From the NCBI GenBank assembly GCA_964447205.1, contig CAYUSB010000004.1, positions 51,799 to 115,798 of the forward strand: a stretch of 64,000 nt of DNA, read 5' to 3'. Numbering within the stretch: position 1 is the stretch's first letter; each line of letters opens with the position of its first letter. Shown piece after piece: positions 7,130 through 62,302 of this stretch. The notes beneath the pieces were generated by a model that worked only from the letters and a program-made list of their open reading frames with translations, had not been told where the DNA came from and made no database searches. Made by a program: the position numbers and the translations under genes. The stretch comes from an uncultured Myxococcaceae bacterium (GTDB taxonomy: Bacteria > Myxococcota_A > Polyangia > Polyangiales > Ga0077539).

Positions 7130-7561
7130 ATGGCAGGGGTGGGGGTGGTGGTCTCGGCGTCCTGGGCCCTGGGGGGCTGTCCCCACGCCTCGGGGCCTGC
7201 GGAGCCGGGGCCCATGAGCCCATCGGCCAACCCGCCGCCGCCGCACGCGATCCAGTCGGGGTCGGCGTTGCAGCCGGGGCCCCCGCAGGGGCGGCCCATC
7301 GAGGGCACTACCCAGGTCAACATGGGGGGGGCCATGGTGCCCGCGCCCCACGCGTCGGCGGAGTGCCAGACCGCGGCCGATTGTGTGCAGGCCCAGTGTT
7401 GTCACGCCACGACGTGCGTCCCGGTGGCCTCGCGCCCTGACTGCAGCGGGACGATGTGCACCCGGGAGTGCCGCCCCGGGACCCTCGACTGCGGCGAGTC
7501 TCGCTGCGCCTGCATCGGCGGCCACTGTGGGGTCCAGCGTCGAAGCGAGACCGAGCCCTGA
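7130..7561 (+). CDS. small Cys-rich lipoprotein, hypothetical
   Basis: MAGVGVVVSASWALGGC signal with lipobox. Mature part has 12 Cys in ~70 aa (…CQTAADCVQAQCCHATTCVPVASRPDCSGTMCTRECRPGTLDCGESRCACIGGHCG). Confidence 0.4.
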   Translation: MAGVGVVVSASWALGGCPHASGPAEPGPMSPSANPPPPHAIQSGSALQPGPPQGRPIEGTTQVNMGGAMVPAPHASAECQTAADCVQAQCCHATTCVPVASRPDCSGTMCTRECRPGTLDCGESRCACIGGHCGVQRRSETEP

Positions 7562-7564
7562 CGT

Positions 7565-8194
7565 TCAGGGCGCGTTGAGGAGGTCGGTGTCGAGCTCGGC
7601 CTGCACGAGGGCCACGGCCTGCCGGAGCTTGTCGAGGAAGTCGTCGGCGGGGCCCACGCAGATCCGGCGGGGGTGACCCTGCCAGGCCGCGAGGATCCGC
7701 CGGTCGATGGCCTGGGCCTCGTCGGGATGCTCGGTGCGCAAGGGGTTCTGATGGTTGTACCCGTGGGCCAGGTCGGGGGTCTGGAGGTGGATCACCAGGC
7801 CGTACCGGGCGTAGCAGGCCTCCCGGGAGACCCCGAGGTCGCTCCAAAACCCGGCCACCCCGTCGGGCCAGTAGGCGGCCCCGTCGACCACCCCCCGATC
7901 GCACAAGATCAACCTCCCCCCGGCCTCCTCCACGGCCATCTGCTCCAGGGCGTCCTGAACGTGGAAGATGGCCCGCTGGGCGGCCTTCCGCGCCCCCACT
8001 CCGACGCCTCGGGGAAACCCTCCCCCGAAGAGGATGCTCGCGGCCTCGGGCAGGACCATCACCCGCTCCCCGAGCTCGCGCCGCAGGACCTCCAGGACGG
8101 CCGTCTTGCCGGCCCCGGGGCCGCCCGTGAGGACGACCCGTCGGGGGGCGTGGGGGAGTTCGGACGGGGGGGCGGGGTCGGGGGAGGTGTGCAT
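7565..8194 (-). CDS. P-loop NTPase, AAA_28/NadR-like ATPase domain protein
   Basis: Walker A VVLTGGPGAGKTAVL and Walker B-like ...RLILCDRG.... ~210 aa, the size of AAA_28 family members. Confidence 0.7.
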   Translation of the reverse strand: MHTSPDPAPPSELPHAPRRVVLTGGPGAGKTAVLEVLRRELGERVMVLPEAASILFGGGFPRGVGVGARKAAQRAIFHVQDALEQMAVEEAGGRLILCDRGVVDGAAYWPDGVAGFWSDLGVSREACYARYGLVIHLQTPDLAHGYNHQNPLRTEHPDEAQAIDRRILAAWQGHPRRICVGPADDFLDKLRQAVALVQAELDTDLLNAP

Positions 8195-13049: not shown

Positions 13050-14399
13050 ATGGACCAGGACAGGCTTCAACAGATTTGTGACGACGTCCTCGGGCGCCTG
13101 CAGCGGGGCGGGGCGAGCGACGCCAAGGTCGTAGCCCGGGCTGGGCGCGACCTGTCGGTGCGGGTGCGTCTCAGCGAGGTCGAGCTCGTCGAGGAGGCGG
13201 CCACCCAATCGCTGGCGGTGCGGTGCTTCAAGGGCCAGCGGGTGGCCATGGCGAGCACGAGCGACCTCACCGCCGCGGGCCTCTCCCGGCTGGTCTCCGA
13301 CGCCCTCGAGCTCGCCGACCTGTCGCAAGACGACCCCTCCGCGGGATTGCCCGACCCGTCCGAGCTCACCCACACCTGGCCCGACCTCGGGCTCTACGAC
13401 CCGACCTGCGGCGACATCTCGGCCGCCGAGGCCGTGGTCCGGGCCCGGCGCTGCGAGGAGGCCTCGCGGGCCTTCGACCCCCGCATCACCAACTCCGAGG
13501 GCGGGGCCTTCGGGCGCACCGCCGGGGGCTTCGTGATGGCCACCTCGGGGGGCTTCCGCGGGGGCTACCAGGGCAGCTACGCCAGCGTCAGCGCCTCGCC
13601 CGTGGCCGCCGACGAGGGCGGCAAAAACCGCACGGCCAGCTACTGGTCGGCCCGGCGGTTTCTGTCGAAGCTCGAGTCCGAAGAGGCCGTCGGGCGCGAG
13701 GCCGGGCGGCGCACCGTGGCCCTCCTCGGGGCCCGCAAGGTTCCCACCCAGGAGGCCCCGGTGGTGTTCGACCCCGACGCGGCCCGGGCCCTCCTCGGGG
13801 CCTTCGCAGGCTGCATCACGGGCGACGCCGTGTACCGCCGGTCGAGCTACCTCCTCGACAAGATGGGCGAGTCGGTGGCCAGCGACCTCGTGTACATCAT
13901 CGACGACCCGCTCATCCCCGGGGCCCCGGGCTCGCGGCCCTTCGACGGCGACGGCCTCGCCACCCGGCGCAACGTGGTGGTGGAGGGAGGGGTCCTCAAG
14001 ACCTGGCTCCTCGACACGTACGGGGCCCGCAAGCTGGGGCTCCGCTCGACGGGCAACGCCGCGGGGGCCACGGGCACCGGGGCGGGGGTCAGCAATTTCT
14101 TCCTGGCCCCCGGGACCCAGACGCCCGCGGAGATCCTGCAGAGCACCCGGAAGGGGCTCTACGTGACGGGGATGATGGGGTTCGGGTTCAACGCCGTGAC
14201 GGGGGACTTCTCCCGCGGGGCCACCGGGTACTGGATCGAAGACGGGGCCCTGGCCTTCCCCGTGGCCGAGGTCACCATCAGCTTGAACTTCAAGGACTTG
14301 TTTGCTTCCATCGACGCGGTGGGCGACGACCTTGATATGAAGTCCTCGGTGGCCTCCCCGACAATTCGGGTGGCCCGGATGACCATCGCCGGCAGTTAA
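13050..14399 (+). CDS. pmbA: metalloprotease PmbA/TldE (peptidase U62)
   Basis: 449 aa. PmbA-type domain order, with a C-terminal ...GNAAGATGTGAGVSNFFLAPG... block. Directly follows tldD, as in the canonical TldD/TldE pair. Confidence 0.9.
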   Translation: MDQDRLQQICDDVLGRLQRGGASDAKVVARAGRDLSVRVRLSEVELVEEAATQSLAVRCFKGQRVAMASTSDLTAAGLSRLVSDALELADLSQDDPSAGLPDPSELTHTWPDLGLYDPTCGDISAAEAVVRARRCEEASRAFDPRITNSEGGAFGRTAGGFVMATSGGFRGGYQGSYASVSASPVAADEGGKNRTASYWSARRFLSKLESEEAVGREAGRRTVALLGARKVPTQEAPVVFDPDAARALLGAFAGCITGDAVYRRSSYLLDKMGESVASDLVYIIDDPLIPGAPGSRPFDGDGLATRRNVVVEGGVLKTWLLDTYGARKLGLRSTGNAAGATGTGAGVSNFFLAPGTQTPAEILQSTRKGLYVTGMMGFGFNAVTGDFSRGATGYWIEDGALAFPVAEVTISLNFKDLFASIDAVGDDLDMKSSVASPTIRVARMTIAGS

Positions 14400-14417
14400 G
14401 GCATACGAAGACCTCCC

Positions 14418-15824
14418 ATGGGCCTCTCCCTCGACACCGCGGTGGCGCGTTTCCCTGAGCTTGGCGGCTCCGCCCAGGACGTGTTCGCCCTCGTGGAGGT
14501 GGCCGGGTTGGTCTCCTCGCGGCAGACCTCTCCCGGATACGCCCCGGGTCCCGCCCGCCCGCCGTTGTGTCTGGCCCTCTGCATCGACGCCTCGAGCTCA
14601 ATGCGGGGGCCGCGGTTTGCCCTGGCCCTCCAGGCCGCCCGCAACGTCGTGCACTCCCTCGGCCCCGACGACCGCTTCGCCGTGGTCACCTTCGACCGCA
14701 GCGCCCGGGTGGTCCTGCCCCCGACCACCCTCGATCCCGACGGGGTTCACGCGGCCTCCCGGGCCCTCGACCGACTCACCACGGGCATCGGGACCAACCT
14801 CGGGGCGGGCTGGCGCGAGGCGGCCGAAGGGCTCCTGCGGACCATGGTCCCGGGGGCGGTCCGGCGGGTCCTGCTCCTGACCGACGGGTACCCCTCGCGG
14901 GGCGAGACCCAACCCGAGGCCCTGCGGGCGATGGTGGCCGACGGGGCCGCTCGGGGCGTCGAGACCAGCCTCCTGGGTCTCGGAGACGGCATCGACGAGG
15001 GCCTCTGCACCACCCTGGCCCGCGCAGGGGAGGGACGGTTTCATTACCTCCGCGACGAGGCGGGTCTGGGCGACCTCGTGGCCGCCGAGGTCGAAGGGGC
15101 CCGGAGCCTCATCGCCCGCGATGTGGTGTTGAGCCTCGGGCTCGCGGCCCGGGTCGATCGGGCCGAGATCCTCCACCGGTTTCCCTGCCAGGCCGACGGG
15201 GACGGGGGCCGGACCCTGCGGGTGCGGGTCGGGTCTCTCACCCGCGACACCCCGCGGTCGATGCTCGTGCAGCTCCATGTGCGCGACGTGGCCACCGACA
15301 CCGTGCTCGGCACGGCCCAGGCCCAGGGCCTCGGGGTGCTCCCTGGCGTTGGGCGTACGACCCCCGCGGCCACGACCCGTCCCGGGTTCGCCCTGGGCGA
15401 CGCCCAGGAGCTCGGGCCCGGCGACCTGGTGATGGTGTCGCCTCCGGTGCACCTCACCCTCTCGGGCGACGGGGCCGACGGAGCCCGGGCCCGGGTGGCC
15501 TACGAGCTCCTGGCGTTGCGTACGGCGGCGGAGATCCGTTCGGCCTGGGACGCCCTCGACGGGGGCGACCGCGAGGCCATGCAGCGGCGCCTCGACCGGG
15601 CCCGCAAGCTGCGGAGGATCCTGGTCGAGCGGGGGCTGGTGAGCCCCGTCCGGCTCGAGGCCTTGCCCGACATCGAGGCCGTGCACCGGGCCATGACAGC
15701 CACCGAGGCCCAGTCCCGCGAGGCCCGGAGGCGCTTCGCGTCGTGGGCCCACAACACCCAGTCGAGCTTCGCCCCGGCGATGCGCACCGACGGCCTGAGC
15801 CCCATCAAGCCGTCGCGGGAGTAA
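14418..15824 (+). CDS. von Willebrand factor type A (VWA) domain protein
   Basis: MIDAS motif LCIDASSSMRG (DxSxS) with downstream T and D residues (…LLTDGYPS…). C-terminal helical region. Confidence 0.75.
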   Translation: MGLSLDTAVARFPELGGSAQDVFALVEVAGLVSSRQTSPGYAPGPARPPLCLALCIDASSSMRGPRFALALQAARNVVHSLGPDDRFAVVTFDRSARVVLPPTTLDPDGVHAASRALDRLTTGIGTNLGAGWREAAEGLLRTMVPGAVRRVLLLTDGYPSRGETQPEALRAMVADGAARGVETSLLGLGDGIDEGLCTTLARAGEGRFHYLRDEAGLGDLVAAEVEGARSLIARDVVLSLGLAARVDRAEILHRFPCQADGDGGRTLRVRVGSLTRDTPRSMLVQLHVRDVATDTVLGTAQAQGLGVLPGVGRTTPAATTRPGFALGDAQELGPGDLVMVSPPVHLTLSGDGADGARARVAYELLALRTAAEIRSAWDALDGGDREAMQRRLDRARKLRRILVERGLVSPVRLEALPDIEAVHRAMTATEAQSREARRRFASWAHNTQSSFAPAMRTDGLSPIKPSRE

Positions 15825-50615: not shown

Positions 50616-50916
50616 CGGGAGTCTCCCATTGTGGTCGAGCGGAGGTCTCGGAGCTGCTCTGACCCCCTCGGCCTACGCAAGCACGGCCCCGAGCTCTTGT
50701 CACTGCGGGTCTGGGCCGCGGCATCGAGGCCGCCGGGTACATCCCCCACGGTGCAGGGCCGAGGCGCGTGACCGGCCGTCGTCGCGGACCGTCGGTCTGC
50801 GGCGGACTGCCGCGGTGGGTGTTTGACACCGTATGGCAGTCCCACTACACCGCGGGGTAGCGGTCGCTGGATGGGAGACTGGTCACCCTCCTGCGTGCCC
50901 TTCGCAGGAGCTGAGA

Positions 50917-53154
50917 ATGAGACATCGAGACGTATTCTTTGCTGCGGTGTTCGCGTCGTTCGCGGCATGCAGCAGTGACCCCGCCCCGGCCGAGCCCGAG
51001 GACTCGGGGGTCGTCACCGATCTGGGAAATCTCCCGGAAGACACGGGCAACCCGACCCCCGACACGGGCAACCCGATCCCCGACACGGGCAACCCGATCC
51101 CCGACACGGGCAACCCCGTCGAGGACACGGGCAACCCCGTCGAGGATACGGGCAACCCCGTCGAGGACACGGGCCCCCTCTGTCCCTCGGGCCAACTGGA
51201 GTGCGCCGGGGGCTGCGTCGACCCGCAGACCAACCCCGCCCACTGCGGGGCCTGCGGCACGACCTGCATGCCCTCCGAGGAGTGCCGGGCGGGGATCTGC
51301 ACCCCGACGGTGACCTGCATGGGGGGACAGATCCTGTGCGGCGGGGGCTGCGTCGACCCCCAGACCGACCGCAACAACTGCGGCACCTGCGGGACGGCCT
51401 GCACCGAGACCCAGACGTGTACGGCCGGGGCCTGCGTAGCCACCATGACCTGCCCCATGGGCCAGACCGCGTGCGGGATGACCTGCGTCGACACGGCCAC
51501 CAGCAACGCCAACTGCGGTAGCTGCGGGGCGGCCTGCGGGACGGGGGAGACCTGCATGGGCGGGGCCTGCCAGCTCCCGATGTGCCCCGCCGGCCAGACC
51601 CGCTGCAACGGGGCGTGCAGCAACCTGCAGAATGACGCGACCAACTGCGGGGCCTGCGGGACGGCCTGCGCCACCACCGAGACCTGCACCGCGGGAGCCT
51701 GCCGCCCGAGCTGCGCGGCGCCGCGGCGCAACTGCACCGTCGACGGGGCCGAGGTCTGCATCGACGTCCAGACCAGCGCCACCCACTGTGGGATGTGCGG
51801 CAACGCGTGCCCCACCGGTCAGGTCTGCACGGCCGGCCGTTGCGGCTGCCCGACGGGTCGCACCGCCTGCGGGATGGCCTGCGTCAATATCACCAGCGAC
51901 AACGCCAACTGCGGGATGTGCGGGACCGCCTGCCCGATGGGCCTGTCGTGCACGATGGGGGCCTGCGTGTGCCCCACGGGGTCCACCCGCTGCGGGACGG
52001 GCTCGGCCGCGCGCTGCGTCAACACCCAGAGCGACACCGCCAACTGCGGGATGTGCGGGCGGGCCTGCACGGCCCCGGCGACCTGCAACATGGGCACGTG
52101 CAACTCGCTCTGCGGGACGGGGACCACGAGCTGCGGGGGCCGCTGCGTGGCCGTCACGACCTTCCAGACCGACAACGCCAACTGCGGCCGCTGCGGCAAC
52201 GCCTGCGGGACGGGGACCACCTGCACCGCCGGGGTCTGCCGTCCCACCAACGACGCCCGGACCGCGGCCATCGCCGTGGTCTTGAGCACGGCCCGTGAGG
52301 TCACCGTCACGGGCAACACCACCAACGCGACCCACGACGGCCCCACGGTCCCCTGCGGCTGCACCTCGGGCGGCAACGTCTGGTACCGCTTCACGGTCCC
52401 GTCGCCGGGCGGAGTGGTCTACCTCGACACGGCCGGCTCGGCCTTCGACACCTCGCTCTTCCTCACCAACTCGTCCGGCACGGCCGTGCCTGCGCAGGCC
52501 GCCTCGGGTTCGCCCAGCCTCGGCCTGTGCAACGACGACGCCCTGTGCGGCACGGGCGGGGGATTCACCTCGGGCGTGCAGTCGCGCACCGTCGGGGTCC
52601 TCGCGGCGGGGACCTACAACGTGGCCGTCGGGGGCTGCGGGGCCGGAGCCTTCACCCTCCGACTCCAGTACCTCCCGCGCAACGTCGGGAGCCGCTTCGT
52701 CGACGCCCGGCTCACCGGCACGGGCAACGTCAGCGGCACCACCGCGGGGACTGCCGTGACCGCGGGCACCTGCGGCGGGGCGGGCGGGTCGGAGGATGTT
52801 CGGTGGTTCCTCAGCTGCGGGTCGGCCCCGCAGCTCTTCAGCCTGTGCCGGAGCGATCCGGGGGCGAGCTGGGTTCGCCAGCGCAACGGGGGGCCGACCT
52901 TCGACCCCGCGGTGTACGCCCGCAGCGCCCAGACCGGGGCCCAGATCGCCTGCAACGACGACGGGGCCTCGATGGGCGGCACCGACTGCCGCGGCCTCGT
53001 GCAGCGCACCCTCTTCCCGACCACCATCGACTCGCGGCAGTTCGGCTCGCGGCTCAACAACCTCTCGGCCCCCCGCGGCCTCAACGCCGTGTTCATCGAC
53101 ACCCTCTCCGGCGGGGCCGGGCTCATCTACAACATGCGCTACCAGGTCCAGTGA
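50917..53154 (+). CDS. Cys-rich repeat lipoprotein: (DTGNPxP)7 heptad repeats + ~18 myxobacterial 'CGxCGxxC' disulfide repeats + C-terminal PPC (pre-peptidase C-terminal)-like domain
   Basis: ATG 50917 with AGGAG 7 nt upstream. MRHRDVFFAAVFASFAACSSD has a lipobox. 21-bp tandem DNA repeats at 51040-51180 encode DTGNP(T/I/V)(P/E). Then …C.GGCVDPQT..NHCGACGTxC..GE.C..G.C… repeats about 18 times. C-terminus …WYRFTVPSPGGVVYLDTAGSAFDTSLFLTNSSG… is PPC-like. Confidence 0.75.
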   Translation: MRHRDVFFAAVFASFAACSSDPAPAEPEDSGVVTDLGNLPEDTGNPTPDTGNPIPDTGNPIPDTGNPVEDTGNPVEDTGNPVEDTGPLCPSGQLECAGGCVDPQTNPAHCGACGTTCMPSEECRAGICTPTVTCMGGQILCGGGCVDPQTDRNNCGTCGTACTETQTCTAGACVATMTCPMGQTACGMTCVDTATSNANCGSCGAACGTGETCMGGACQLPMCPAGQTRCNGACSNLQNDATNCGACGTACATTETCTAGACRPSCAAPRRNCTVDGAEVCIDVQTSATHCGMCGNACPTGQVCTAGRCGCPTGRTACGMACVNITSDNANCGMCGTACPMGLSCTMGACVCPTGSTRCGTGSAARCVNTQSDTANCGMCGRACTAPATCNMGTCNSLCGTGTTSCGGRCVAVTTFQTDNANCGRCGNACGTGTTCTAGVCRPTNDARTAAIAVVLSTAREVTVTGNTTNATHDGPTVPCGCTSGGNVWYRFTVPSPGGVVYLDTAGSAFDTSLFLTNSSGTAVPAQAASGSPSLGLCNDDALCGTGGGFTSGVQSRTVGVLAAGTYNVAVGGCGAGAFTLRLQYLPRNVGSRFVDARLTGTGNVSGTTAGTAVTAGTCGGAGGSEDVRWFLSCGSAPQLFSLCRSDPGASWVRQRNGGPTFDPAVYARSAQTGAQIACNDDGASMGGTDCRGLVQRTLFPTTIDSRQFGSRLNNLSAPRGLNAVFIDTLSGGAGLIYNMRYQVQ
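51040..51180. repeat. 21-bp tandem repeat x7 (GACACGGGCAACCC(G/C)(A/G)(T/C)CC(C/G)C) encoding DTGNPxP heptads
   Basis: Visible directly in the sequence. Lies within CDS 50917-53154. Confidence 0.75.
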
Positions 53155-53230: not shown

Positions 53231-54187
53231 GTGGTGGTCGAAGCGTACCGGTCGGTTGTCCCCCCTCTGCGCGCCTGGCTCGTCGTGCCCGGGCCCGAAG
53301 TCCCTGCCCCTGCGGCCGTACGGGCCGCGGTCGTCACCGCTCGATGCCTCATCCACCAGGCCGATGACGCCCGACGGGCCGACGCCCTGGGGCTCCTCGG
53401 CCTGGAGCTTCCCTCCGCGGCCCCTGCCGCGGCCCTGGCTGCACAACGAGAGGCCCTGCGCCTGGTCCTGTCGGCCCGGGAGGGCCTCGACGAGCCGCTC
53501 CCCACCGTGGCCGAGGCCCTGCAGACGCCCGCCGGGGAGGCCTTCTGCGCGGCCTACCCCGCGCTCCCCGCGGTGGTCCTGCGTACGGCCGAGGCCGACC
53601 TCGACCACGACCCCGCCGCCCTCAACGCCGCCGTCGACGCCCTCGGGACCGCCCTCGAAGCCGAGCTGTCCGTGGTCGAACCCTCCGTCCGCAGTCGCCG
53701 GATGCGGGCCTTCCTCCGCCTGGAGCGCACCCTCCTGACCGTGGGGCTTCTGGCCCTCGGGGCCATGGGGCTGCGCGCGGTGGGCCTGTCGATGCGCACC
53801 GATCACGCGGTCCACGCGGTGTGGCAGGCCAGCTCGGCGGTCGACGGGTACACCCGCACGGGGCGGGGTTTTCATCCCATCGAGGGCCGCTTCAACATCT
53901 TCTTCCAGACCGCGGTCGAGGCCGAGCCCTGGGTGCGCTTCGACCTCGGGGCCGTGCGGGCCGTGCGGGCCGTGCGGGTACAAAACCGCCTCGACAACCA
54001 CCAGGACTGGGCCGTCCCCCTCATCCTCGAGGTCTCGACCGACGGAACCTCCTGGCGCGAGCTCGCCCGCCGCGTCGAGCCCTTCTACTTCTGGCAGGCC
54101 ACGTTTCGTCCCACCCGGGTCCGATGGGTTCGGCTCCGGGTGCCCCGCCCGACGAGCCTCCAGCTCGGGCGTGTCGAGATCCGCTGA
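53231..54187 (+). CDS. hypothetical membrane-anchored protein with C-terminal F5/8 type C (discoidin/galactose-binding-like) domain
   Basis: TM LLTVGLLALGAMGL. C-terminal …FFQTAVEAEPWVRFDLGAVRAVRAVRVQNR…WAVPLILEVSTDGTSWREL… resembles discoidin-domain core strands. Confidence 0.45.
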   Translation: MVVEAYRSVVPPLRAWLVVPGPEVPAPAAVRAAVVTARCLIHQADDARRADALGLLGLELPSAAPAAALAAQREALRLVLSAREGLDEPLPTVAEALQTPAGEAFCAAYPALPAVVLRTAEADLDHDPAALNAAVDALGTALEAELSVVEPSVRSRRMRAFLRLERTLLTVGLLALGAMGLRAVGLSMRTDHAVHAVWQASSAVDGYTRTGRGFHPIEGRFNIFFQTAVEAEPWVRFDLGAVRAVRAVRVQNRLDNHQDWAVPLILEVSTDGTSWRELARRVEPFYFWQATFRPTRVRWVRLRVPRPTSLQLGRVEIR

Positions 54188-54244
54188 GGGGCTCCCCCGC
54201 GCGGGGCGACAAACCCATCGGTCTACGATATGGTCCCGGGACCT

Positions 54245-56080
54245 ATGAATCGTCGCGCGCAGGCTGGGGGTTGGGTTGGTGTGGTGGCCGCGTTGGGGGC
54301 CCTGGGATGCGGGGGGGGTTCGGCCACCCCGGGGACAGACGGAGGCCCCGGGCCGGGGGCCGACGTGGCCGGGGCAGATACAGCCCCCGCGGTCGACACG
54401 GGCCCCGGGGTGTGTGTGCCCGACCGGGCGGCCTGGGACAGTACCATCCTCGGTCACGTCACCCGGCAGTGCGGGACCTGCCACGGGGCCTCCCCGCAGT
54501 ATGGTTCGCCCTACTCCTTGCTCGATTACGACGCCAACCTGACGGGCCCTGTGGGGCTGCGGCGGGTCGATCGGATCGCCGCCCGGCTCATGGCCGGCAC
54601 GATGCCCCCCGCGGGCACCCCGGCTCCCACCGACGCGGTCAACGCGGCCCTCGTGCAGTGGGCCACCTGCGGGGCCCAGACCCCGATGCCGGGGCAGGGG
54701 CTGCGGGCCTCGGCCCCCGTGTTCCGCTCGCCCGAGCGGAGCCCCGAAGGGCTCGCCCAGTTTGAGCTTCGGGCTGACAGCTTCCCCGTGCCCCCGACCT
54801 TGCGTGACCGCTACCAGTGTTACTCGTTCACGGCCCCGGTCGACGGCCCGCGCTTCATCAAGCGCTTCGAGATGATCGTCGACAACCCCGAGGTCTTGCA
54901 CCACCTCGTGCTCCTGCGCGACCCCCAGGGTACGGCCCCCCGCGAGCCCTTCCAATGCAACAGCATGCCCGAGGGCAGCGAGTACCTCTACGCGTGGGCC
55001 CCCGGGCAAAACGCCTTTGAGTTCCCTGAGGGGGGGCTGCGGGTCGAGCCCGGCCAGCGCTTCGTGGTGCAGTTTCACTACAACAACAGCGCCATGCGCG
55101 AAAACGTGGTCGACCGCTCGGGGGTCCGGCTCTATCACGGCCCCGTCGCAGGGACCGAGTACGGGATGGTGGCCATCGGGCCCGTGGGCTTCACCCTCCC
55201 GGCCCGCAGCGAGACCACGGTCGCGAGCGCGTGCACCCTGCGGGCGGGCAGCCGGATGCTCGCGGGGATGCCCCACATGCACGGGATCGGGACGGGCTTC
55301 GAGCAGACCGTACGGCGCCGGGCGGGGGGCACCGACCCCGTGGTGTCGCTCCAGGGATGGCGCTTCGAGACCGAGCTCTTCTACGAGCTCCCGGTGACCC
55401 TGGCCGAGGGCGACCGGCTCATCACCCGGTGTACGTTCAACAACCCCACGAGCAGCCCCGTGCGCTCGGGGTCGCGCACCACCGACGAGATGTGCTTCAA
55501 CTTCGCGTACGTCACCCCGCCGCCCCTGTTCCGCTTCTGCGACGAGGCCATCAACGTCGGCCCCGACCTCATGTACACCCCCGGGCGGTGCGCCGCCCCC
55601 GCCGCCACGCGCGCCCTCCCGCTGGCCCAGGGGCGGGTCATCGCCGACGATCCGCCCGCCCTCGTGGCCGGGCCCATCCCGTCGGGCCGCTGGGAGCTCG
55701 CGAGCGTCAACTACTACGTCGACACCATCATGACCGGGGCGGGGGTGCTCAACCTGTCCGAGTCGTCGATGTCCGGCCGCGGCCAGATGTGGATCGAGTC
55801 GGGGCGCCTGGTGGCCGACTTCAACACCTCCCTCGTGCTGGTGATCGGGGCCGGGATCCGGTTCTCGCGGGAGATCCCCCTGAGCTTCGCGGGCGACACC
55901 ACCCTCACCGGCACCGACATCGCCCTGCGGCCCACGTGTTCGGCCGAGGGCTCCACTGCCCCGATGGCCCTGCAGTACGGGCTCGGGGCAGGGGGCACCG
56001 AGCTCACCCTTGGGCTGCGGGCCCAGGAGACCGCCGGGGTGCGGATCACGCCGCGGTACACCTTCCGCCGGGCGGATTGA
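54245..56080 (+). CDS. lipoprotein with N-terminal CxxCH motif and copper type-II ascorbate-dependent monooxygenase (PHM/DBH)-like domain
   Basis: MNRRAQAGGWVGVVAALGALGCGG lipobox; …TRQCGTCHGASP… (CxxCH). PHM-like CuH site …NPEVLHHLVLL… (HH…), CuM site …AGMPHMHGIG… (H-x-H), and …TTDEMCFNFAYV… (Met ligand context). Confidence 0.55.
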   Translation: MNRRAQAGGWVGVVAALGALGCGGGSATPGTDGGPGPGADVAGADTAPAVDTGPGVCVPDRAAWDSTILGHVTRQCGTCHGASPQYGSPYSLLDYDANLTGPVGLRRVDRIAARLMAGTMPPAGTPAPTDAVNAALVQWATCGAQTPMPGQGLRASAPVFRSPERSPEGLAQFELRADSFPVPPTLRDRYQCYSFTAPVDGPRFIKRFEMIVDNPEVLHHLVLLRDPQGTAPREPFQCNSMPEGSEYLYAWAPGQNAFEFPEGGLRVEPGQRFVVQFHYNNSAMRENVVDRSGVRLYHGPVAGTEYGMVAIGPVGFTLPARSETTVASACTLRAGSRMLAGMPHMHGIGTGFEQTVRRRAGGTDPVVSLQGWRFETELFYELPVTLAEGDRLITRCTFNNPTSSPVRSGSRTTDEMCFNFAYVTPPPLFRFCDEAINVGPDLMYTPGRCAAPAATRALPLAQGRVIADDPPALVAGPIPSGRWELASVNYYVDTIMTGAGVLNLSESSMSGRGQMWIESGRLVADFNTSLVLVIGAGIRFSREIPLSFAGDTTLTGTDIALRPTCSAEGSTAPMALQYGLGAGGTELTLGLRAQETAGVRITPRYTFRRAD

Positions 56081-56209: not shown

Positions 56210-57412
56210 GTGTCGCCTTTGTTGTGGTGTCGTTTCCGCGTGGCGGGAGCGGGTGTGGCCCTGGGCCTTGGGCTGACGGTGCCGCTGGCGAGCTGTCTGC
56301 CGCCCGAGAACCGTCCTGAGCCTGCGTACTTTCCCCCGACGCCGTCGTCTCCGCCACGCCGCGTCCGGCGCCTGGTGACCTCGGGGGGCGCGACGGCCCT
56401 GAGCCGCTTCACCCAGCACGAGCTGCACGAGTACCAGCCCGTGCTCTCTCCCGATGGCCGGAGCGTGGTGTTCGCGCAGACCGGGCAGGAGCTTGGACCG
56501 TACGGCGACCCCCAGGGGCCTACGGTGATCGCCTCTGTCGACGCCGCGACGGGGGCTCGGCGCGTGATGTGGACGCCCGCCCAGGCCCTGTCACTGTCGC
56601 CGACGTGGCTGCCCGACGGCAGCTCCCTGCTCTACGTCTCCAACCGCTCGGGCCCCGCGGCCGTGGTGCGCTCGCTGTCGGCTTCTCCCAACAGCGGCGT
56701 CTCGATCATCATGGACGAGAACCAGGCCCAGCGCATCGGCTCACCCTCGGTGTCGCCTGACGGTCGTCGGGTTGTCGCGCAGGCATACATCGGCAACGCG
56801 GTGTCGATCGTGATGCTCTCCCTCGGCACGAGCGAGTACGCGGTGTTGGGAGAGGGCCACCACCCGGTCTTCGACCCGCGCGGCGAGCGCATCGCCTTCG
56901 TGCGTCAGGTCGGGGCCGAGACCCAGATCTACACGATGCGGGCTTCGGACGGAACGGACGTGGTCCAGCTCACCCAGGGGGAGTACGCGGCCGACGACCC
57001 GACCTTCTCCCCGGACGGGCGCTGGATCGCCTACACCCTCAACCGGGGCGAAGGCGCCCGCGGCCCCGCCCGGGATCGTCGCAACCTCTTCGCGACCCGC
57101 GCCGACGGGCAGGGGACCCTCATTCAGGTCACCGACGGCGAGTCGATGGTGCGCCACCCGCATTGGGGCGTCGATGGCGCGATCTACTTCTCGGCCAATA
57201 GTCACAATGGCAACTATGACATCTGGAAGCTGCGTCCCACGGGGGAGCTTGCCTCGCTCGCCGTGACGCCCACCGTGTACCCCGGGGCCCCGTCGTCGGT
57301 GGCCCCGCCGAGCGACGCGACGTCGTCTCCGGCTCCGCAGACCCTGACGCCGGTGGGGGAGGTGTTCCCGGTGGAGCCCGAGGCCCCAGTGCGCCGTCGG
57401 GGGCGTCGATGA
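56210..57412 (+). CDS. TolB-like PD40 (WD40-like) beta-propeller lipoprotein
   Basis: GTG 56210 with AAGGAGG 8 nt upstream. Lipobox LASC. Repeated PD40 motifs: LSPDGRSVVF, WLPDGSSLLYVSNRSG, VSPDGRRVV, FSPDGRWIAYTLNRGEG. Confidence 0.7.
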   Translation: MSPLLWCRFRVAGAGVALGLGLTVPLASCLPPENRPEPAYFPPTPSSPPRRVRRLVTSGGATALSRFTQHELHEYQPVLSPDGRSVVFAQTGQELGPYGDPQGPTVIASVDAATGARRVMWTPAQALSLSPTWLPDGSSLLYVSNRSGPAAVVRSLSASPNSGVSIIMDENQAQRIGSPSVSPDGRRVVAQAYIGNAVSIVMLSLGTSEYAVLGEGHHPVFDPRGERIAFVRQVGAETQIYTMRASDGTDVVQLTQGEYAADDPTFSPDGRWIAYTLNRGEGARGPARDRRNLFATRADGQGTLIQVTDGESMVRHPHWGVDGAIYFSANSHNGNYDIWKLRPTGELASLAVTPTVYPGAPSSVAPPSDATSSPAPQTLTPVGEVFPVEPEAPVRRRGRR

Positions 57413-58596
57413 CCCGCGTTGTCCCTGCCTTGGGCCTGGCCGTGTGGCTGTGCGGCCTCCCCGCGTGGGCGCAGCTCTATCGCAACGGCCCTGCGCCACG
57501 GGAACGCCCCCAGGCGCTGCAACCCATGCCTGTGCAGGAGGAGGCCCCGCCCGTCGCGTCTGAGCCGACCGCGCCGGTCGAGGTCGGGGCCGGGCGAAGC
57601 GGGTCGCCGGTGTACGACGGGGGTCGGCTTTCACTCAGCCTGATGGCGAGCAACGCGTTCGGCGCGGGGACCCGGATCGAGTTCAACTATCCCATCGCGC
57701 GCAGGTTGTTCGGCGGCAACAACGCCCTCTCCCTTGGGACCGGGCTCAGCTTCTTTCCGAACGCCGCGTACGAGTCGAGCGGCTGTTACCCCTCCTACCC
57801 GGGGGCGTGCTCGTCCGATGGCATGGCCGTGGGACTCTCGGCGGGCATGGGCTGGCGTTTTGGAGTGGGCGATCACGTCGAACTCGGTCCCCGCACCGCC
57901 CTCGTGCTCTGGGTCGCAGGGGACAGCGCCCTGACCCTGCTCGCGGGCTTCGGCGCGAGCGTGAGGCCCTGGCGGGAGGGGAGCTTTCGGATCTTCTTCG
58001 ACCTCGACTTCGGCCATGCAGACCGATTGGGGGGCGGGCTGGTGTTGTTCGGCCTGGGCATCGGCTGGCAGGTGGGAGGGCTGCCCGACGCGCCCCGCGC
58101 GGCCCCAACGCAGCGCCCTGCCCTGAGCCTGGGGGCGAACACAGGCACCGCGCCCGCGCCCGCGCCGACCGAGGGCCCGGCGGTGCACACGGGGTGGCGC
58201 TGGACCCTGAGCGGCCAGTGGGCCGACGACCTCTACGGCCTCGGGGCCCGCACGGGACTGAGCCTGCCGCTCTCCAACAACGTCCTGTCCAACTCGAGCG
58301 CGATCACCCTGGGGTTCGAGGTGGGATACTTCGAGAAGTCAGAGACATGGACGGCTTCGGCCTTGCTCGGTTGGCGCTTCGGGCTCGGGGACCACTTCGA
58401 GATCGGTCCACGGCTGGGTGTCGGCTTCTGGGGACTGGGCCGGCGAGAGACCCTGATCGTGACGGCGGGCACGAGCCTCGGCATCCGCCCGTCGGTCCAC
58501 AGCGGATTTCGTATCGTGATCGACGCTGATTTCTCCAGGTGGCACGGTCGGCGCGACGTATTGGCCTTCGCGGCGGGCCTGGGGTACGCGTTTTGA
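57409..58596 (+). CDS. secreted protein with internally duplicated domain (possible OM beta-barrel), hypothetical
   Basis: ATGA overlap with the upstream gene. Signal MTRVVPALGLAVWLCGLPAWAQ. Two copies of ~110-aa module (…GMGWRFGVGDHVELGPRTALVLWVAGD… / …LLGWRFGLGDHFEIGPRLGVGFWGLG…). Ends in Y-A-F, a beta-barrel-like terminus. Confidence 0.45.
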   Translation: MTRVVPALGLAVWLCGLPAWAQLYRNGPAPRERPQALQPMPVQEEAPPVASEPTAPVEVGAGRSGSPVYDGGRLSLSLMASNAFGAGTRIEFNYPIARRLFGGNNALSLGTGLSFFPNAAYESSGCYPSYPGACSSDGMAVGLSAGMGWRFGVGDHVELGPRTALVLWVAGDSALTLLAGFGASVRPWREGSFRIFFDLDFGHADRLGGGLVLFGLGIGWQVGGLPDAPRAAPTQRPALSLGANTGTAPAPAPTEGPAVHTGWRWTLSGQWADDLYGLGARTGLSLPLSNNVLSNSSAITLGFEVGYFEKSETWTASALLGWRFGLGDHFEIGPRLGVGFWGLGRRETLIVTAGTSLGIRPSVHSGFRIVIDADFSRWHGRRDVLAFAAGLGYAF

Positions 58597-59686: not shown

Positions 59687-59717
59687 AGGTTGTGTTCGCC
59701 CGTCCCGAGAGGTCACC

Positions 59718-60905
59718 ATGAGCCCCAACTTCCCTGGCGCCCTCGCCGCGTCTCCCACCCCCTGGACCCTTCGACCGACGGACGCCCTGGAGGTCCGGTG
59801 GGTGCTCACCGTCAACGCCGTCAACACGCTGGCCTGGCTGACGGACCAGGCACGGTGTTCTCGGGGGTGCCACGATGCCGAACTGGCCAACGAGACCTGG
59901 ATGCGCGCGATCGTGTCGAGCGAGAAGTACGATCCGAAGCGGGGCGCGTTGGGGCAATGGCTGAAGAGTCTGATGCGCGGGGTCTGCCTCGACGCCCACC
60001 GTCGCAGGGGCCGTGGGGGACGCCTCGAGACGGTGGCGCACGGCGACATGTCGGAGTTTGCCCAGGGGGACGGTCTCGACCCGGAGCGCGAGGTCGCGCT
60101 GCGGGAGGGGCTCGGGTACGCCGTCGAGGACCTCGACCCGCGCTCGATCCGGCTCCTGTTCGCAGACGAACTCGAGTCCAAGAGTCTGGAGGAGCTGGCC
60201 CAGGAGCTCGGGCTGGCCGTGTCGTCTGTGTACATGGCCCGCACCCGCGCGAAGGCTCAGGCGAGGCCCCGGCGGGAGCACGTGTTCGCGCTCCTGCCGC
60301 TTCTGTTTGGGGGCGGGACCGAAGGGCGTTCGGCCCGTCAGGAGCTGTGGGCCTGGATCACCTCGGGCTGGCGGGCCGTATCCCTGGGGGTCACGGCGTT
60401 GGCGCTCACCGCGGGAGGGGCCTTCCATCTCGGCCAGCAGTCGGGGAGGCGCCCGCCGCAGGAGACGCGTCCTACGGTCGTCGCGGCGCGGCCCGCGGTG
60501 GTGGAGACCGTGCCGAGGTCCGAAGCCGCGTTGGTCCCGACCGTGGTGGGCTCCGCGCCTCCGGCGGCGGTTCGGTCGTCGCCCGAACTCGTCGTCGACC
60601 CGGCTGTTCGGTCCGTGTCGCGCCCTTCGGGGGCGGAGTCTGCGCGGGCTGCCCGCGTCCTGATCGACGAGGCCGAAGGGCTGTTTGGCGCGCACCCGGC
60701 CGAGGCCCTGCGTCGCGCCGAACAGGCTGCCCGGGTGGCTCCGCGCGTCGACGAAGACCGTCGGGAGTCGCTGCGTTGCGTGGCCCTCGGTCGTCTCCAC
60801 CGCGACGCCGAGGCCGCCGCGTGTGCGCGCGATTTCCAACGCCGCTGGCCCCGGAGCCCGTTGGCCTCGCAGGTCGCCGCCCTGCGCCCGTCGAGCGCAC
60901 CGTGA
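59718..60905 (+). CDS. RNA polymerase sigma-70 factor, ECF family, with long C-terminal extension (TM + ~190-aa domain)
   Basis: Region-2-like N-terminus. Region 4 HTH …SLEELAQELGLAVSSVYMARTRAKAQ…. Then TM (WAWITSGWRAVSLGVTALALTAGGAF) and an Ala/Arg-rich C-terminal domain resembling a fused anti-sigma. Its stop overlaps the next gene's start (GTGA). Confidence 0.6.
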   Translation: MSPNFPGALAASPTPWTLRPTDALEVRWVLTVNAVNTLAWLTDQARCSRGCHDAELANETWMRAIVSSEKYDPKRGALGQWLKSLMRGVCLDAHRRRGRGGRLETVAHGDMSEFAQGDGLDPEREVALREGLGYAVEDLDPRSIRLLFADELESKSLEELAQELGLAVSSVYMARTRAKAQARPRREHVFALLPLLFGGGTEGRSARQELWAWITSGWRAVSLGVTALALTAGGAFHLGQQSGRRPPQETRPTVVAARPAVVETVPRSEAALVPTVVGSAPPAAVRSSPELVVDPAVRSVSRPSGAESARAARVLIDEAEGLFGAHPAEALRRAEQAARVAPRVDEDRRESLRCVALGRLHRDAEAAACARDFQRRWPRSPLASQVAALRPSSAP

Positions 60906-62302
60906 GGGTCTTGTGGCTCGCCGCGCTGGGGTTGGGATGCACCGTCCAGATCGACGTGATCGCGGTCCCCTTCGACGTCGGCGTGCGGCTCGATGCGTCC
61001 GAGGTGGAGGCCGACGCGCAGCCTGGCGATCTCCCCGCGGGCGACGGGGCCCCGACGACCCCCGACGCGCCTCCCACGAGCGAGCTCCCCGTCGGCTGCG
61101 AAGACGGCCGGGTGCGCTGCGGAGGGGCCTGCGTGCGGACCGACCGTGACCCCGCCCACTGCGGCGACTGCGGCCGAGCCTGCCGCGCGGGGGTGGGCTG
61201 CACCGAGGGCCGCTGCGACGACGCGGTGATTGATCTCGCATTGGGCGAGAGCCATCTGTGCGCCCTTCGCGGCAACGGGGAGGTGGCGTGTTGGGGCAAC
61301 AACGACTTCGGCCAGTTGGGGGACGGCTCGATCAACAATCGGGCCGTCCCGACCCCGGTGATGGGGATCTTCGGGGCCCGTCACGTCGACGTGCGACAGT
61401 CGCACTCCTGCGTGGTCGCCACCGCCGCGCGCGAGCTGCTCTGTTGGGGCAACAATAGCCGCGGTCAGCTCGGCAACGGGGGCCGTGACGACTCGGTGTT
61501 GCCGGTCCTCGTGACCGGGTCGCGGGGTGCGACGACGGTGTCGATCGGCCAGGAGTTCAGTTGTTTTGCGGCGGGACAGGTGTGGTGCTGGGGCGACAAC
61601 GCGCAGGGCCAGTTGGGCGACGGGACCCTGATGCCCCGTCGGCTGGCGGGGCCCGTGGCCGACCTCGACATGGTGGCCGAGGTCGCCGCGGGGGGCACCC
61701 ACGCCTGCGCCCTGCGAGACGGACGGGTATACTGCTGGGGCGAGGGACACGATGGCAGGCTCGGCCAGGGGGAGGGGGCCATGTTGCGGGCCACGCGCCC
61801 CGTCGAGGTGCCGGGGCTACGGGGCGTGGCCCAACTCGCGGTGGGGGCGTATCACGCCTGCGCGCGGGTTCGGGGCGATGGGGTGTGGTGCTGGGGCTCC
61901 AACAACAACGGACAGCTCGGCGACGGCACCTTCGTCAGCCGCGGGGCGCCCACCCGGGTGGCCGAACCCGAGCTGCTGGAGGCCAAGTGGATCGTGGCTG
62001 CCCCCGGCGGGTTTCACACCTGCGCCCTCGATGGCCGGGGTGGCCTGTGGTGCTGGGGCAACAACGAAGGGGGCCAGGTGGGCGACGGCTCGACGGCGAT
62101 CCGGGTGCCCCTGCCCGCCCGGGTGCGTGTGCCCGCCGAGGCCGAGCCCATGGAGCGCATCCGCCTCGGCGCGCAGGCCTCGTGCTCGATCTCAGCCCGC
62201 GACGGAGGCGTCTGGTGTTGGGGGCAGCTCGGTTGGATCTTGCCGAGCGCGGGTGTGGGGGCGCAACGTACCCCGCGGAGGCTTCCATGGTTTGGTCCGT
62301 GA
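60902..62302 (+). CDS. RCC1/ATS1-repeat beta-propeller lipoprotein with one N-terminal myxobacterial Cys-rich module
   Basis: GTG 60902. WLAALGLGC lipobox. …CGGACVRTDRDPAHCGDCGRACRAGVGCTEGRC… is a single disulfide repeat. Seven RCC1 repeats follow (…CWGNNDFGQLGDGS…, …CWGNNSRGQLGNGG…, …CWGDNAQGQLGDGT…, …CWGEGHDGRLGQGE…, …CWGSNNNGQLGDGT…, …CWGNNEGGQVGDGS…). Confidence 0.75.
   Translation: MRVLWLAALGLGCTVQIDVIAVPFDVGVRLDASEVEADAQPGDLPAGDGAPTTPDAPPTSELPVGCEDGRVRCGGACVRTDRDPAHCGDCGRACRAGVGCTEGRCDDAVIDLALGESHLCALRGNGEVACWGNNDFGQLGDGSINNRAVPTPVMGIFGARHVDVRQSHSCVVATAARELLCWGNNSRGQLGNGGRDDSVLPVLVTGSRGATTVSIGQEFSCFAAGQVWCWGDNAQGQLGDGTLMPRRLAGPVADLDMVAEVAAGGTHACALRDGRVYCWGEGHDGRLGQGEGAMLRATRPVEVPGLRGVAQLAVGAYHACARVRGDGVWCWGSNNNGQLGDGTFVSRGAPTRVAEPELLEAKWIVAAPGGFHTCALDGRGGLWCWGNNEGGQVGDGSTAIRVPLPARVRVPAEAEPMERIRLGAQASCSISARDGGVWCWGQLGWILPSAGVGAQRTPRRLPWFGP

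Follow-up and report, generated by a model that had tools for sequence, protein, structure and literature searches.

Within a 64,000-nucleotide window (the whole stretch of DNA that was analysed, positions 51,799 to 115,798 of contig CAYUSB010000004.1 in assembly GCA_964447205.1), which derives from an uncultured Myxococcaceae bacterium and has a base composition of ~72% G+C, an open reading frame (ORF) at 54230..56080 on the plus strand encodes a protein of 616 residues. The second in-frame ATG of the ORF, at 54245 (MNRRAQ...), agrees better than 54230 with the N-termini of homologs; the residue numbers used throughout are counted from 54230. From its N-terminus, the protein consists of a signal peptide, a disordered tether, a c-type cytochrome module, the two β-sandwich domains of a PHM/DBH-type copper monooxygenase, and a β-barrel (Table 1). 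Such a two-copper oxygenase core is known from the animal enzymes that amidate hormones and make noradrenaline. All the testable defining features of the copper type II monooxygenase family were found in the bacterial protein, and it is, on this basis, a member of that family.

The copper core is recognized by both of its Pfam models, PF01082 with 37.4 bits (cut-off 30) and PF03712 with 40.2 bits (cut-off 23), and a phmmer search of the PDB sequences returned PHM (2e-14) and human DBH (1.3e-13) and nothing else; no NCBIfam family was matched. In the alignment with PHM, H224, H225, and H283 fall on H107, H108, and H172 of the CuH site, and H349, H351, and M421 fall on H242, H244, and M314 of the CuM site, all of them being invariant. 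The first pair forms the HH motif (residues 224-225, positions 54899-54904), and H283 (codon 55076-55078) closes a QFH motif at residues 281-283. The H349-x-H351 pair (codons 55274-55282) lies within MPHMH (residues 347-351, positions 55268-55282), and M421 (codon 55490-55492) lies within DEMC at residues 419-422. In addition, Y195 and Q281 align with PHM Y79 and Q170. The motifs HYNN, PHMH, and [DNE]EMC are each present in 120 of 120 homologs, and the copper ligands are strictly invariant in members spanning 28-84% identity. The first-pass annotation of this DNA, made from the letters alone, had described the product as a lipoprotein combining a c-type haem-binding CxxCH motif with a PHM/DBH-like copper monooxygenase domain. 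The copper part of this description is borne out by the two Pfam matches above their cut-offs, and the CGTCH, HH, and MPHMH motifs and the Met of DEMC were all found where it had placed them. The strict invariance of the catalytic ligands would be unexpected for a decayed enzyme. It is therefore highly improbable that the protein has kept the fold without catalysis, as an envelope lipoprotein that binds metal or haem or has a structural role, even though the lack of a known activity and the presence of many paralogs per genome could be explained in that way.

A structure model of the protein (pTM, the predicted template modelling score, 0.62), whose least certain aspect is how the domains are placed relative to one another, shows the core as a two-domain β-sandwich fold, in which the two copper sites would face one another over a cleft. 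The best Foldseek match of this model is DBH (5.6e-17). Among the PHM crystal forms, the best superposition is obtained with 6ala_A, with a template modelling (TM) score of 0.79 and a root-mean-square deviation (rmsd) of 2.6 Å, whereas most other PHM entries give TM scores of 0.63-0.70 and rmsd values of 3.7-6.4 Å. The 6ala_A structure is described as the closed H108A-citrate conformer of PHM (PMC9064607). In its predicted resting state, the bacterial core therefore looks closed-like, and the CuH/CuM ligand geometry is indirectly supported by superposition of the model on the PHM structures.

The module that precedes the copper core contains a CGTCH motif at residues 81-85 (54470-54484) and a distal Met in M125-P-P (54602-54610), and is flanked by the invariant residues C62 and C147. 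From the composition of the protein itself, only 0.0035 CxxCH motifs would be expected by chance. In an alignment with 30 homologs of 43-84% identity, C81, C84, H85, M125, P126, and P127 are invariant. More broadly, a single CxxCH is present in 118 of the 120 homologs, the two exceptions being an N-terminally truncated fragment and a sequence with SGNCH, and MPP follows the first haem Cys by 44-48 residues in 119 of the 120. In the otherwise intact full-length homolog with SGNCH in place of CGxCH (P0071), the first haem Cys has been lost, with the Met of MPP and every copper ligand retained. The change could be a sequencing error, or this homolog could bind its haem through a single thioether.

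The window protein by itself scores only 14.5-18.8 bits against the cytochrome Pfam models, below the cut-off of 27, and the cytochrome assignment therefore rests on family-level evidence. When the module was excised (residues 58-150) from 20 family members and searched by itself, PF13442 (Cytochrome_CBB3) was matched by all 20, with a best E-value of 1.3e-7, and PSCyt1 by 15 of the 20; a precomputed PF13442 match is also present in three relatives. A profile of the module searched against the PDB gave 12 matches, 11 of which are c-type cytochromes (c6, c552, c555, c55X, CcoP, and a dihaem cytochrome). In a domain-length alignment to cytochrome c6, CxxCH falls on CxxCH and the MPP Met falls on the Met of the c6 "MP", and the structure model places four helices across residues 66-145. 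Collectively, the invariant C81, C84, and H85, the cytochrome profile matches, and the Met-on-Met alignment uphold the haem-binding motif of the first-pass annotation, and residues 59-150 can be assigned from sequence to a class I, His/Met-type cytochrome c domain, which would be expected to be loaded with haem.

Table 1. Features of the monooxygenase gene and of its upstream neighbour, in window positions
Feature	Position	Strand	Evidence
Small F5/8 type C (discoidin) gene, product apparently membrane-anchored, conserved part	53717..54187	+	PF00754, 38.5 bits
Predicted signal peptide closing at the lipobox Cys C27, MNRRAQAGGWVGVVAALGALG followed by C	54245..54310	+	sequence
Disordered Gly/Pro/Ala/Asp-rich tether, residues 28-58	54311..54403	+	low pLDDT, weak conservation
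Class I c-type cytochrome module, residues 59-150	54404..54679	+	conservation, PF13442, PDB profile, model helices
PHM/DBH N-terminal (CuH) β-sandwich	54761..55096	+	PF01082, PHM alignment, invariant columns
PHM/DBH C-terminal (CuM) β-sandwich	55187..55552	+	
Up-and-down β-barrel, residues 452-616, of putative calycin/lipocalin-like topology, with invariant C454, C570, Q519, and D530	55583..56077	+	

The protein carries a lipoprotein signal with a positive n-region, a hydrophobic h-region, and a lipobox Cys. The sequence MNRRAQAGGWVGVVAALGALG followed by C fits a relaxed lipobox pattern that was devised for this analysis, as do 115 of the 120 homologs, most of them with the canonical L-[AST]-[GA]-C, and C27 is at least 90% conserved in the 30-homolog alignment; the lipoprotein part of the first-pass annotation is thereby supported as well. 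Residues 1-51 have a predicted local distance difference test (pLDDT) score below 50 in the structure model, and the tether region shows little conservation and length variation across the homolog alignment. All 13 Cys residues of the protein are conserved. One belongs to the lipobox and two to the haem motif; for the remaining ten, the alignment with PHM and the limits of the domains lead us to infer five disulfides (C62-C147, C197-C243, C335-C437, C401-C422, and C454-C570). These disulfides would be consistent with an oxidising, extracytoplasmic location, and the sequence features support a Sec-exported, lipid-anchored cell-envelope protein of a Myxococcota bacterium.

The C-terminal barrel is the variable part of the architecture. 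Among the best 150 representatives, a second architecture of ~420-480 residues and 28-35% identity was found, in which the match spans the cytochrome and the copper core and ends before the barrel. Exactly one CxxCH is present in 63 of 71 mid-length representatives, and in a separate census of the two-domain representatives an MP motif follows CxxCH by 30-70 residues in 69 of 69. The named two-domain members belong to the Myxococcota/Polyangiales. This sister subfamily lacks the barrel, suggesting that the barrel is dispensable for the chemistry. Most family sequences that lack the cytochrome seem to be short fragments, and the conserved unit is thus the cytochrome-copper fusion, with the barrel as an optional addition. 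The putatively calycin-like barrel may bind or deliver the substrate.

The residues that line the substrate site of PHM provide a means of addressing the substrate class. In PHM, Arg240 forms a salt bridge with the C-terminal carboxylate of the peptide (PMC9064607, PMC12164859). The equivalent position in the window protein is M347, and the 120 homologs carry Met (98), Gly (11), Leu (6), or Ala (5) there. In 101 more distant representatives the position is occupied by F, W, M, A, S, T, or L, and neither Arg nor Lys was found in any of the 120 homologs or the 101 distant representatives. In the two-domain sister subfamily (proteins P0191-P0260; locus L089, 7001-8368), the position is mostly Phe or Trp, as opposed to Met. 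PHM N316 and Y318, which we take to be contacts to the glycyl substrate, correspond to F423 and F425; all 120 homologs have Phe at both positions, and distant members have F or Y at the first and F at the second. Because the equivalents of R240, N316, and Y318 are replaced, the pocket appears to be lined by hydrophobic or aromatic residues (M/F/W, F/Y, F) and not to bind a carboxylate, from which we infer that the substrate is not a glycine-extended peptide. In combination with the putatively calycin-like barrel of the long form, such a pocket weakly points to a small or lipid-like substrate from the envelope or the environment that is uncharged or hydrophobic.

These replacements bear directly on the idea of a bacterial peptidylglycine α-hydroxylating enzyme that would act, as eukaryotic PAM does, on a secreted peptide or a ribosomally synthesised and post-translationally modified peptide (RiPP). 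The closest solved structure is PHM, with which the protein shares the copper ligands and some of the cysteine pattern, all of which would suit such an enzyme. However, the position of Arg240 is Met and is never Arg or Lys in the members examined, the positions presumed to correspond to N316 and Y318 are F/Y and F, the protein contains no PAL lyase domain, and across 84 related loci there is no conserved lyase gene, no conserved small precursor ORF, and no conserved neighbour beyond the discoidin gene of the closest subclade described below. Peptide amidation is therefore very improbable for this protein and was rejected. The same survey of loci gave a negative answer to the suggestion in the first-pass annotation that RiPP or peptide precursor genes might co-occur; its interpretation is otherwise supported, and the peptide/RiPP hint is also contradicted by the replaced PHM substrate residues.

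A different substrate class would be implied by a hydroxylase resembling DBH or tyramine β-monooxygenase, which would act on aromatic amines or on small aromatic signals or toxins, for example those derived from prey or plants, again with the haem as donor. The position of DBH at the top of the Foldseek list and the compatibility of the aromatic/hydrophobic pocket with an aromatic substrate are in its favour, as is the fact that predatory Myxococcota and Bradymonadia show an expansion of the family to 2-3 paralogs per genome. Since amine-metabolism genes are not conserved nearby in the 84 related loci, we consider this specific version unlikely; it would be a sub-case of the haem-fed monooxygenase favoured below and does not contradict it.

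The protein belongs to a family of considerable size. At least 207 full-length relatives of 560-636 residues are present in the protein database, under generic names only ("hypothetical protein", "monooxygenase", or "cytochrome c domain-containing protein"). A scan of one genome per species gave 325 loci, of which the best 80 are nearly all from Myxococcota (Polyangiales, Sandaracinaceae, Bradymonadia, and Microvenator). An exhaustive HMMER search over 1.84 billion cluster representatives returned 4,069 matches at E ≤1e-3, 1,442 at ≤1e-10, and 162 at ≤1e-30. Several metagenome-assembled genomes contain 2-3 paralogs, with three in JBPOHC and two each in JAXLYI, CANJUR, JADJAE, and CAMFHP; this suggests a paralogous expansion, perhaps with differing substrates. 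The family is also represented in a cultivable species, Sandaracinus amylolyticus, by DB32_008257 and its paralogs. The individual domains are already recognized automatically by databases. No description of a prokaryotic PHM homolog or of a cytochrome c-PHM fusion was found in the full-text literature, with subscription journals outside the coverage, or in a 2025 PHM review (PMC12164859). A coral skeletome paper that names both terms together proved to be unrelated. On sequence evidence, this is a large, Myxococcota-centred family of haem c-fused PHM-type monooxygenases, so far with generic automatic annotation only.

The genomic neighbourhood offers little that is shared across the family. 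An unbiased clustering of ORFs in the 84 related loci revealed no gene family in more than ~10-12 loci besides antisense shadow ORFs of the monooxygenase gene, and no conserved redox partner or copper chaperone was found in them. Neither a second copy of the gene nor another CxxCH-bearing coding ORF is present in the window. The immediate upstream neighbour is the discoidin gene (ORF 53231-54187, plus strand), whose 3′ end lies 43-58 bp ahead of the monooxygenase start and whose product apparently has an N-terminal membrane anchor. Its counterparts include 7374-7928 in locus L001 and 7052-7909 in L002, the annotated start varying so that the products range from 184 to 318 residues. Of 88 related loci, 12 have the discoidin gene directly upstream, and these belong without exception to the closest subclade (~51% identity or more); the gene was not found beside more distant family members, where the neighbours are unrelated. 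The discoidin protein may thus be a clade-specific partner in the closest subclade only.

Downstream of the monooxygenase gene lie a PD40/TolB-like β-propeller gene (56210-57412, plus strand) and a weakly outer-membrane protein (OMP) barrel-like ORF (57409-58596, plus strand), which overlaps the PD40 ORF by 4 bp. As candidate partners, the PD40 and OMP-like genes, an ORF of unknown type, and the extracytoplasmic function (ECF) sigma gene were discarded because none has a counterpart in any of the 88 related loci, and the Stig1 and SDR genes because they are found in few related loci only. The Stig1 gene (50833-53154, plus strand) encodes a secreted-looking protein of 773 residues with seven Stig1-like Cys-rich repeats (PF04885, 126.8 bits), a peptide repeated in tandem near the N-terminus (…DTGNPIPDTGNPVEDTGNP…), and no Pfam match in the C-terminal region; an ortholog with 84% identity is similarly placed in L002. 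Further downstream (59690-62302 and 59718-60905, plus strand), an ECF sigma ORF of 395 residues with Sigma70_r2/r4 overlaps a long ORF in another frame, which carries in its C-terminal part (residues ~470-850) a Cys-rich module like that of Stig1, along with six RCC1 repeats. The start of the RCC1 protein is probably well downstream of the mechanical ORF start. In L089, ~5 kb downstream of the two-domain member, a MerR regulator, a MerT/HMA/CopZ-zinc-finger protein, and a P-type ATPase are encoded at 13288-15368; they look like a cluster for heavy-metal or copper handling, which at a single locus may be a coincidence.

The union of a cytochrome c with a two-copper core can be considered in terms of electron supply. 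PHM-type enzymes take up two electrons per turnover, singly at CuH, and their source in eukaryotes is ascorbate. To our knowledge, a lipoprotein of the bacterial envelope has no obvious supply of ascorbate and shares its compartment with the pool of c-type cytochromes. Because an invariant His/Met cytochrome c is fused to an intact CuH/CuM core and no conserved partner is found, the haem can be regarded as a built-in donor, and the fused cytochrome c probably supplies the electrons in place of ascorbate. In such a mechanism, the periplasmic respiratory chain would reduce the His/Met-ligated haem c domain, the haem c would hand two electrons, singly, to CuH in the role that ascorbate plays in eukaryotes, and O2 bound at CuM would then allow the hydroxylation of a substrate C-H bond. 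The reading that we favour, with reasonable though by no means full confidence, is that of a haem c-fused, non-coupled binuclear PHM/DBH-type monooxygenase that carries its own one-electron donor and acts on a substrate other than a glycine-extended peptide. A more specific version, held a little short of even confidence, is that of a self-sufficient family coupled to the respiratory chain, in which a natural wire within a single polypeptide would lead from haem c through CuH to CuM, and which would hydroxylate a non-peptide, probably hydrophobic substrate in the myxobacterial envelope.

The direction of electron flow can also be read otherwise. A cytochrome c that is fused to the core and has no dedicated partner would fit an acceptor role equally. 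The flow could then be reversed or the copper site might not be that of a monooxygenase, so that the protein would oxidise its substrate or reduce nitrite, O2, or peroxide, with the haem exchanging electrons with the respiratory chain as in cytochrome-fused dehydrogenases and nitrite reductases. Such a role is improbable in view of the full CuH/CuM ligand set, which is invariant down to the Met thioether, and of the likewise invariant two-sandwich fold. The CuM Met thioether is the hallmark of O2 activation in PHM and DBH, and we know of no dehydrogenase among the members of this fold.

The proposed haem-fed monooxygenase would share its oxygen chemistry with PHM and DBH and differ from them in its surroundings. 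PHM, the core of PAM (PDB codes: 1PHM and 1SDW), has R240, N316, and Y318 where the bacterial protein has M, F, and F, and PAM includes a PAL lyase that is absent here. The bacterial protein is instead a lipoprotein with a cytochrome c fused at the N-terminus and a β-barrel at the C-terminus, and ascorbate, the donor for PHM, is an implausible one in the bacterial envelope. In DBH, tyramine β-monooxygenase, and MOXD1 (PDB code: 4ZEL), the N-terminal domain is a β-sandwich DOMON, which is unrelated to the all-α class I cytochrome c with covalent-haem motifs found here, and the C-terminal dimerisation domain of DBH is replaced by a meander barrel.

With regard to electron delivery, the nearest parallels are copper enzymes of the periplasm to which a cytochrome c donor is fused, such as cytochrome c-tethered copper nitrite reductases and CcoP of the cbb3 oxidase. 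They follow the same design, in which a PF13442-type class I cytochrome c is tethered for single-electron delivery from the respiratory chain. Their copper domains are unrelated, however, being cupredoxin or haem-copper oxidase domains that reduce nitrite or O2, in contrast to the PHM fold and the proposed C-H hydroxylation here. A haem protein likewise serves as the electron source for a copper monooxygenase when the cytochrome domain of cellobiose dehydrogenase feeds lytic polysaccharide monooxygenase and when cytochrome b561 feeds ascorbate to PHM and DBH. In these two systems the partners are separate proteins, the haem is of the b-type, and b561 acts via ascorbate, whereas the haem c of the bacterial protein is on the same polypeptide as the copper core.

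PHM and DBH are medically important, ascorbate-dependent secretory glycoproteins of eukaryotes, and there has been debate about how electrons are transferred over the ~11 Å between the coppers and whether or not the closed conformer is active. If the proposal is true, it would be the first function assigned to the PHM/DBH fold in bacteria, and a bacterial form that brings its own cytochrome c would make plain how the fold runs without ascorbate. It would also provide a bacterially encoded model in which the haem, being optically trackable, gives spectroscopic access to the injection of single electrons, so that inter-copper transfer and open/closed gating could be set off and timed by way of the haem. 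Since the family extends to hundreds of species with multiple paralogs per genome, one biochemical characterisation would annotate many genes. The bacterial form would, in addition, bring to light a new oxidation chemistry in the envelope of Myxococcota, among which predators and makers of natural products abound.
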